Shown here piece after piece: positions 2,276 to 3,907 of a DNA stretch of 51,628 nucleotides. Location of the stretch: assembly GCA_016186645.1 (NCBI GenBank), contig JACPLF010000007.1, forward strand, positions 192,651 through 244,278, given 5' to 3'. The DNA comes from Candidatus Levyibacteriota bacterium. GTDB lineage: Bacteria > Patescibacteriota > Microgenomatia > Levybacterales > UBA12049. Both the position numbers and the translations under genes were made by a program. Position 1 is the first letter of the stretch; each line of letters begins with the position of its first letter. The notes beneath the pieces are model-generated. The model was not told the DNA's origin. It searched no databases and saw nothing but the letters and a program-made list of their open reading frames with translations.

Positions 2276-2300
2276 AAAAAATACTACACAATTCTTTTTG

Positions 2301-2372
2301 TACCAACGACAGGATTCGAACCTGTGATCGATCGCTTATGAAACGATTGCTCTACCGCTGAGCTACGTTGGC
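2301..2372 (-). tRNA. tRNA with CAT anticodon (elongator Met most likely)
   Basis: Cloverleaf: acceptor GCCAACG/CGTTGGT, D-arm GCTC..GAGC, anticodon stem ATCGT/GCGAT with loop TTCATAA, T-loop TTCGAAT, discriminator A. No encoded CCA. Confidence 0.9.
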
Positions 2373-2382
2373 GCGCCTCACT

Positions 2383-2421
2383 ATTCTAGCAGTTGATTTA
2401 AAAGAGGTCAAACATTATAAT
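2383..2421. promoter_or_regulatory. Overlapping divergent sigma70 promoters for the two CAT tRNAs
   Basis: + strand: TTGATT(2393-2398)-17 bp-TATAAT(2416-2421). - strand: TTGACC(2411-2406)-17 bp-TAGAAT(2388-2383). Confidence 0.65.
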
Positions 2422-2430
2422 ATTTAGACG

Positions 2431-2499
2431 CGCGGGGTAGTGTACAGTGCACGTGAGGCTCATAATCTCACAGGTCGGGCGCAACTCCCGACCCCGCAA
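2431..2499 (+). tRNA. Atypical initiator-like tRNA-fMet (CAT), 69 nt
   Basis: 5' CGCGGGG and 3' CCCCGCA-A with the C1:A72 mismatch typical of initiators; anticodon loop CTCATAA. The D-loop is only 5 nt (ACAGT) and the T-loop is CGCAACT. Confidence 0.75.
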
Positions 2500-3829: not shown

Positions 3830-3902
3830 GGGCTCGTAGTTCACCGGTTAGAACGCGACTCTTATAAAGTCGATGCAGATGGTTCGATTCCATCCGAGCC
3901 CA
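3830..3902 (+). tRNA. tRNA-Ile with TAT (UAU) anticodon
   Basis: Perfect cloverleaf: GGGCTCG/CGAGCCC, D-stem GTTC/GAAC, anticodon stem CGACT/AGTCG with loop CTTATAA, T-arm GATGG-TTCGATT-CCATC, discriminator A. Confidence 0.9.
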
Positions 3903-3907
3903 CTCCA

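Follow-up and report, generated by a model that had tools for sequence, protein, structure and literature searches.

Can a tRNA gene with a CAU anticodon, whose D-loop, T-loop and anticodon stem all depart from the textbook form, be the initiator of its cell? Textbooks treat the G18-pseudouridine-55 contact, T54 and, in initiators, the three G-C pairs as nearly universal, and in E. coli both A11:U24 and the three full G-C pairs contribute to initiator function. The gene lies in a window, by which we mean the whole stretch of 51,628 nucleotides that was analysed (G000:C5:192651-244278), of an 880-kb assembly (G000; 36% GC, 11 contigs, 95% complete) originating from groundwater metagenomes. The host is an ultra-small bacterium of the Microgenomates class of the Patescibacteria/CPR, a class of free-living-type bacteria that are yet episymbiotic and reduced.

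The gene and its detection

The tRNA gene and its four arms, in positions of the window, are the following.

2431..2499, plus strand: very probably an initiator tRNA gene of the tRNA-fMet type, with a CAU anticodon and, C1 and A73 included, a length of 69 nt (ARAGORN, sequence, conservation and covariation)
2431..2437, plus strand: 5' strand of the acceptor stem, CGCGGGG, pairing with CCCCGCA at 2492-2498; discriminator A73 at 2499
2440..2452, plus strand: D-arm, stem GUGU/GCAC (G10-C25, U11-A24, G12-C23, U13.G22), loop ACAGU at 2444-2448
2453..2471, plus strand: anticodon arm, stem UGAGG/UCUCA (A29-U41, G30-C40, G31.U39), loop CUCAUAA; extra 26:44 pair G2453-C2471
2475..2491, plus strand: T-arm, stem UCGGG/CCCGA; loop C54 (2480), G55 (2481), C56 (2482), A57, A58 (2484), C59, U60

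Read segment by segment, the gene is CGCGGGG UA GUGU ACAGU GCAC G UGAGG CUCAUAA UCUCA CAGG UCGGG CGCAACU CCCGA CCCCGCA A. It has a variable loop of 4 nt and does not encode the CCA end, and minimum-free-energy folding gives a cloverleaf (z = -2.5) whose anticodon helix has 6 bp. The original prediction, made from the letters of the window alone, had listed C1:A72, G2-C71, C3-G70, A73, the CAU anticodon, a D-loop of 5 nt, the T-loop CGCAACT, U11-A24 and the A-U, G-C and G.U pairs of the anticodon stem, and all of these are present in the sequence. It had also expected that standard scanners may miss such a gene, which is true of the Rfam tRNA model and untrue of ARAGORN. RF00005 gave no match at 2431-2500, neither at its gathering level (29 bits) nor when 401 nt were searched at E<=10, but ARAGORN readily calls a tRNA-Met at 2431-2500. 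The best Rfam match to the gene is the tymovirus tRNA-like element RF00233, which at 19.6 bits stays below its gathering threshold of 40 bits.

Conservation, covariation and a group I intron

Homologues of the gene were found by BLAST in 37/41 genomes of the genus, family and order, with one copy per genome in nearly all relatives. A pattern scan that used one genome per species extended them to at least 120 Microgenomates-type (Patescibacteria/CPR) species; the groups named among these are Levybacteria, Woesebacteria, Shapirobacteria, Gottesmanbacteria, Roizmanbacteria, Microgenomates and Patescibacteria, many of the other labels being generic or evidently wrong, and it is from these names that G000 is assigned to the Microgenomates class. 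When the cloverleaf was compared with 25 relatives, 96% of the positions expected to pair did so, with 8 doubly-changed pairs; on 97 further sequences (79 distinct) the figures were 97.8% and 11, and all four stems covary. The same covariation was reached by 0/500 shuffles of the 79 distinct homologues and all slid controls fell to 31-54% paired, in statistics that ignore phylogeny. The covarying homologues to which the original prediction had pointed as a check do exist, and they support every stem.

The variation of the gene is best followed arm by arm in the 79 distinct homologues. In the acceptor stem, pairs 3-5 and 7 are invariant (C3:G70 in 79/79), 2:71 covaries (G:C 65, A:U 13, C:G 1), and 1:72 shows U:A 42 times, a mismatch 37 times and G:C or C:G not once; A73 is invariant by inspection, every distinct homologue ending in ...A-A-C. 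The D-loop has 5-6 nt in 79/79 of these Microgenomates-type sequences, where initiators from most of the other sampled Patescibacteria classes have 7 nt, and U11:A24 and U13.G22 are invariant (79/79), where other Patescibacteria classes have A11:U24. The anticodon loop CUCAUAA is likewise the same in all 79, and positions 29-31:39-41 are A-U, G-C and G.U (au/GC/gu) in 77/79; the other sampled classes carry au/GC/gu or au/GC/GC. Positions 26:44 are always paired and covary in Watson-Crick form (G:C 44, A:U 34, G:U 1), and all five pairs of the T-stem show double changes. Across the whole phylum, the acceptor stem, A73 and the CUCAUAA loop are nearly invariant. The small D-loop sets the initiator apart within its own genome, since the other 41 tRNAs of G000 have a D-loop of at least 7 nt with GG, and keep G18G19 and T54; for four of them (three being class II), where automatic parsing of the D-arm was unsuccessful, the GG was identified by visual inspection.

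Several relatives give a BLAST match in two parts, which in three of them (G001, G005 and G018) are separated by a group I intron (RF00028, 68-72 bits). The example in G001 measures 203 nt, is inserted after U33 and ends in G, and its rejoined exons are identical to the tRNA at 2431-2499.

L015 1298-1500 (G001:C7): group I intron in the initiator tRNA; introns also in L014, L023, G003, G020, G021, G072 and G097

An intron of about 200 nt after U33 is found in several genomes of the same genus and of the same class, in the manner of the cyanobacterial-type group I intron of tRNA-fMet, which lies in the anticodon loop as well. Unlike these intron-bearing genes, the copy at 2431-2499 has no intron. 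The intron-split initiator genes were missed by ARAGORN. The same program reported no tRNA-Trp, tRNA-Tyr or tRNA-Thr (UGU/GGU) in G000, for which incompleteness or intron-split genes may be the cause.

Initiator identity

The question of identity turns both on the marks that the tRNA carries and on the other CAU tRNAs of the genome. The original prediction had described a tRNA lacking most universal tertiary and initiator determinants. This is overstated, in view of a 1:72 mismatch (C1xA72, with no strong Watson-Crick pair), G2:C71, C3:G70, A73, G30:C40 and a CAU anticodon (2461-2463) set in a CUCAUAA loop (2459-2465), all of which are present. The remainder of the acceptor stem is built of G4-G7 with C66-C69, and the stem as a whole is identical to that of E. 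coli tRNA-fMet. Two classical determinants are indeed absent: U11:A24 stands in place of A11:U24, and positions 29-31:39-41 do not have the three consecutive G:C pairs of the strict rule, although they keep G30, the base required by a relaxed published rule.

In comparison with the metZWV/metY-type tRNA-fMet of E. coli, the gene therefore shares the CAU in CUCAUAA, the CGCGGGG/CCCCGCA acceptor stem, C1xA72, G2:C71, C3:G70, A73 and G30:C40, and it is similarly a gene separate from the elongator tRNA-Met. Yet the E. coli type measures 74 nt to the discriminator with a D-loop of 8-9 nt, and the present one 69 nt with a D-loop of 5 nt; A11:U24 gives way here to U11:A24 and the three G-C pairs to au/GC/gu; positions 26 and 44 form a Watson-Crick pair, the variable loop has 4 nt, the T-loop reads CGCAACU, with neither T54 nor pseudouridine-55, and position 18 is A and not G. 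Initiators with au/GC/gu are natural variants in some mycoplasmas and alpha-proteobacteria, in which G30 is critical, and they can sustain E. coli (PMC5389676); the A-U, G-C and G.U pairs and the retained G30 of our gene agree with them. Unlike in those variants, the au/GC/gu stem is joined here to a miniaturised body and is the norm across a CPR class (77/79). The mycoplasma and alpha-proteobacterial tRNAs keep, as far as is known, a normal D-loop, G18G19 and the TPsiC loop.

Three further features of the window bear on identity.

2300..2372, minus strand: canonical elongator tRNA-Met (CAU), RF00005 71.4 bits, also called by ARAGORN
3830-3903, plus strand: tRNA-Ile (UAU), called by ARAGORN
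2393..2421, plus strand: predicted sigma-70-type promoter of the initiator tRNA, -35 TTGATT at 2393-2398, 17-nt spacer, -10 TATAAT at 2416-2421

ARAGORN reported 42 tRNAs in G000, two of them with CAU, namely the compact initiator and the canonical elongator. A second initiator was sought throughout the 95%-complete G000 with a regular expression for the acceptor stem, with blastn-short (queries being E. coli-type and Patescibacteria-type initiators) and with a scan for YUCAURN loops closed by 5-bp stems, and none was found. In a closed genome of the same class (G043), a model built in this analysis gave the compact initiator 88.8 bits, the next match being a tRNA-Gln with 51.8 bits. The original prediction had named, as what would speak against it, a canonical fMet tRNA elsewhere together with an unconserved or untranscribed locus; no such tRNA was found in the assembly, and the locus is conserved. 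TilS was above its family cut-off in 0/21 genomes of the order, and the weak 20-bit matches in open frames of about 430-540 aa are presumably other PP-loop enzymes. Since the order lacks TilS and G000 has a tRNA-Ile (UAU), AUA needs no CAU tRNA; judging from gene content, it is apparently the UAU tRNA that reads this codon, rather than a CAU tRNA bearing lysidine. One of the two CAU tRNAs is then the elongator and the other the initiator, and the gene at 2431-2499 is distinct from both elongator tRNA-Met and tRNA-Ile2(CAU). We conclude that 2431-2499 is very likely the cell's initiator tRNA, of tRNA-fMet type, and probably the sole one.

The D/T elbow

The D-loop ACAGU comprises A14, C, A18 (2446), G19 (2447) and U. 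It had been described as having no G18G19, and this holds for G18 only, an A being found at 2446. The single G of the D-loop (2447) and C56 (2482) are both invariant in 79/79 distinct homologues, as is A58, and G2447 is best read as G19 with C56 as its partner. Position 18 covaries with position 55 without exception: G:U occurs 54 times, A:G 23 times and G:C twice (Fisher 2e-20, phylogeny ignored). G55 is found only together with A18, in 23 distinct sequences, and C54 almost only with G55 (11/12 cases). Both states, G:U and A:G, are found in each of the two families of the order. Moreover, A:G at 18:55 recurs in other classes in different loop contexts, AGUAGCAA or AACAGCA with UGCAAAU, so that the switch has happened, or was maintained, repeatedly. 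Covariation of the 15:48 Levitt pair, also sought among the 79 distinct homologues, gave no clean pattern.

Measured against the canonical elbow, the gene keeps G19:C56 and A58, has A:G at 18:55 and carries C at position 54, as read from its bases. In canonical tRNAs, G18 intercalates between 57 and 58 and forms one hydrogen bond to pseudouridine-55, and the exposed face of G19:C56 is read by L5, the L1 stalk and RNase P (PMC4810234). The bases of this pair, i.e. the outer face of the elbow, are intact in the initiator. An elbow with A:G would also be structurally plausible, because the tRNA-like structure (TLS) of TYMV has a tRNA-like elbow, its D/T association being nearly identical to that of tRNA in the crystal structure (PMC4810234), and the Rfam consensus of the tymovirus valine TLS (RF00233) combines CAGU with UGCAACU loops, having A at '18' and G at '55'. 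It is this combination of loops that makes RF00233 the best Rfam match to the gene. The sub-threshold match is not taken as homology to the tymovirus element; the TLS is a pseudoknotted mimic in a viral 3'-UTR, the gene here is a cloverleaf tRNA, and the likeness is limited to two loops that we read as convergent.

The original prediction had called the tRNA mitochondrial in style, and in a short D-loop, in the loss of G18, T54 and pseudouridine-55 and in the reduced genome the likeness to metazoan mitochondrial tRNAs is real. However, the D/T interaction is gone from mitochondrial tRNAs, as are the elbow-reading motifs from the molecules that bind them (PMC4810234), while here 19:56 is G:C in 79/79, A58 is invariant, 18:55 covaries between G:U and A:G, all four arms are of full length and the initiator alone is altered; conserved partners at 18:55 and 19:56 are what a mitochondrial-style tRNA would not have. 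Such a pattern makes the mitochondrial label too strong. Going by the conserved and covarying bases, the D/T elbow appears rebuilt rather than lost, and in the initiator alone.

Promoter and neighbouring tRNA genes

A canonical promoter had been noted just upstream of the gene, and the promoter scan confirms it: TTGATT-17-TATAAT at 2393-2421 matches the consensus at 10/12 positions. In an alignment of 21 relatives, a TATAAT-like -10 box is kept 8-10 nt 5' of C1 in most, and the ACG that precedes +1 is conserved, with A at 2428 (position -3) in at least 90%. As C1 sits 9 nt past the -10 box, the 5' leader is predicted to have about 2-4 nt; both the start site and the short leader are predicted from the position of the promoter. 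The elongator tRNA-Met has a promoter of its own, TTGACC-17-TAGAAT, running from 2411 down to 2383 and thus divergent from the initiator gene. Each -10 box stands some 9-10 nt away from the mature 5' end of its gene, a distance that suggests very short leaders for both tRNA-Met genes. The two promoters stand back-to-back within 2383-2421, their -35 boxes (2393-2398 on the plus strand, 2411-2406 on the minus strand) being a few bases apart. The divergent pair of initiator and elongator tRNA-Met is syntenic in most relatives, across genera and families.

Contigs from RNA runs contain an identical tRNA, and were rejected as proof of transcription since they extend into unlike flanks and into a promoter; they may represent DNA carry-over or the sequence of relatives. 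The initiator locus itself is present in DNA runs only.

A functional initiator tRNA, as had been proposed from the letters of the window, is consistent with all of the above: the gene is conserved and covarying, has its own conserved promoter and is the only one of initiator type that was found.

Pseudouridine-55 and RNase P

TruB is absent from 7/7 genomes of the genus and from 14/21 of the order. U55 is near-universal in tRNAs; nevertheless six elongator tRNAs of G000 carry C55, in a T-loop UCCGAUU or UCCAAUU (Ile-GAU, Asn-GUU, Lys-CUU, Gln-UUG, Pro-CGG and Val-CAC).

C4:3716-3788, C5:172514-172588, C10:24893-24966, C10:49195-49266, C10:161934-162006 and C11:172494-172566: C55 elongator tRNAs of G000

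The absence of TruB and the elongators with C55 together suggest that pseudouridine-55 was given up in this lineage, or so it seems from the genomes. Likewise, an initiator with A18-G55 and C54 would need neither pseudouridine-55 nor ribothymidine-54, which fits the genus-wide absence of TruB. A simple correspondence between the presence of TruB and the base at 55 was considered and rejected, as A:G is found with TruB (G030, G032) and G:U without it (G008, G011, G012).

The RNase P RNA of the host is found outside the window.

G000:C5:14495-14922, minus strand: RNase P RNA, type-A, full-length match, 36 bits (gathering 100), E = 2.6e-10

Across the order the scores of this RNA range from 36 to 104 bits, and the G000 copy is unusually divergent. 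The 16S rRNA was sought in G000 by conserved motifs, for the sake of G1338/A1339, and none was found in the assembly.

Alternative explanations

The elongator-type orientation of U11:A24, the incomplete set of three G-C pairs and the Watson-Crick U1:A72 pair of about half of the homologues could be taken to mean that the gene is no initiator at all, and that it encodes a second elongator tRNA-Met, a tRNA-Ile2 with CAU read as lysidine, or a dual-purpose Met tRNA as in animal mitochondria. This is very improbable, given that a canonical elongator tRNA-Met adjoins, that TilS is absent with a tRNA-Ile(UAU) present, and that the acceptor stem, A73 and CUCAUAA make up an initiator signature which is nearly invariant across the phylum; in addition, weak 1:72 pairs are tolerated by Fmt, as mutants of E. 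coli demonstrate. A decaying pseudogene, or a set of hairpins that resembles a tRNA by chance, might likewise lack an Rfam tRNA match and be without T54, pseudouridine-55 and G18 all together. Still, such a sequence would hardly be kept in at least 120 species while each of its stems and two tertiary pairs acquired compensatory changes, nor would its promoter be conserved or a group I intron be maintained in the copies of relatives, and this is the sole initiator candidate of G000, which leaves decay or chance a negligible probability. Nor do we see more than the slightest chance that the tRNA belongs to a phage or another mobile element and is not a housekeeping gene of the host: odd tRNAs are common on phages, but this one is found once per genome in nearly all relatives, forms with the elongator tRNA-Met a divergent pair that is syntenic across genera and families, and has no integrase or repeat signature around it in the list of open reading frames.

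Whether the initiator is formylated is a different matter. In 19/21 relatives fmt and def are present and adjacent (e.g. G004:C18:13560-15039 and G006:C14), the Fmt of the genus having Formyl_trans_N and a partial Formyl_trans_C domain (Pfam) and scoring below the family cut-off. In G000, on the other hand, HMMs for def and fmt found no match, and tblastn with the Fmt, Def and M50-type peptidase proteins of G004 and G006, the last being a conserved neighbour, found nothing. Perhaps the initiator works unformylated here, the def-fmt operon having been lost and U11:A24 and the small D-arm reflecting a relaxed recognition by Fmt; a joint loss of def and fmt would be biologically coherent. Yet G004 and G006, both of which have def-fmt, carry this tRNA with 99-100% identity, and its shape is thus not tied to the loss of Fmt. 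That the conserved neighbour gene is missing as well agrees with a block left out of the assembly, the bin having 11 contigs and 95% completeness, and the source metagenomes hold several unbinned contigs with a related M50-fmt arrangement, none of them assignable to G000. Unformylated initiation is accordingly unlikely in our view, and an assembly gap is more likely than a real loss of def-fmt.

How the compact initiator may work

With 2431-2499 read as the cell's initiator tRNA, a course from gene to ribosome can be proposed. Its own sigma-70 promoter would give a transcript that starts with a leader a few nucleotides long, which the divergent type-A RNase P would trim, and CCA would be added post-transcriptionally, as none is encoded. 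MetRS would charge it through the CAU anticodon and A73. C1xA72, G2:C71 and C3:G70 would serve as the initiator marks, through which in E. coli Fmt is led to formylate the tRNA and EF-Tu to reject it, and the 1:72 mismatch would exclude EF-Tu here too; G30:C40 in the au/GC/gu stem would license the tRNA for the P-site and IF3. The body would be that of a miniaturised initiator common to the Microgenomates class, with 5-6 nt in the D-loop and 4 nt in the variable loop, with U11:A24 and with Watson-Crick pairing between 26 and 44. The elbow of the L-shape would be kept by G19:C56 as its outer face and by the retained A58, and in the genus A18-G55 would have co-evolved to take the place of the G18-pseudouridine-55 contact, and C54 that of T54.

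Meaning for the lineage

A search of the literature on CPR/Patescibacteria initiator tRNAs or on their D-loop and T-loop found no description of this tRNA form. The au/GC/gu stem is already known as a natural variant; it is the compact body and the A18:G55 elbow for which no prior description was found, and a tRNA specialist would find the compact initiator moderately surprising. Models of the covariance type that report CPR genomes without an initiator tRNA would find their explanation here, and the gene may offer a compact natural scaffold for the engineering of orthogonal initiators. The finding also ties in with the loss of TruB and with C55 in the elongator tRNAs of the same genus.

A whole class of bacteria appears to break several near-universals at once in its single essential initiator, and to keep the L-shape through a compensatory A18:G55. 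Nature would thereby have run, with phylogenetic replication, an experiment on the requirements of the elbow in tRNAs and of the anticodon stem in initiators. As a tentative proposal, which we consider possible though doubtful, Microgenomates-type Patescibacteria may have miniaturised the initiator alone and rebuilt its elbow (A18-G55 in several sub-lineages, often with C54), so that it needs neither TruB nor a T54 methylase, and the shape itself may be an extra initiator mark that is read by Fmt, IF2/IF3, RNase P or the ribosome. The co-adapted IF2/IF3, Fmt or P-site that the original prediction had inferred may belong to the same picture, for which the absence of TruB, the divergent RNase P RNA and an Fmt below its family cut-off provide circumstantial context. 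If the proposal is true, the shape of a tRNA and the machinery of initiation would have co-evolved in a setting other than an organelle.
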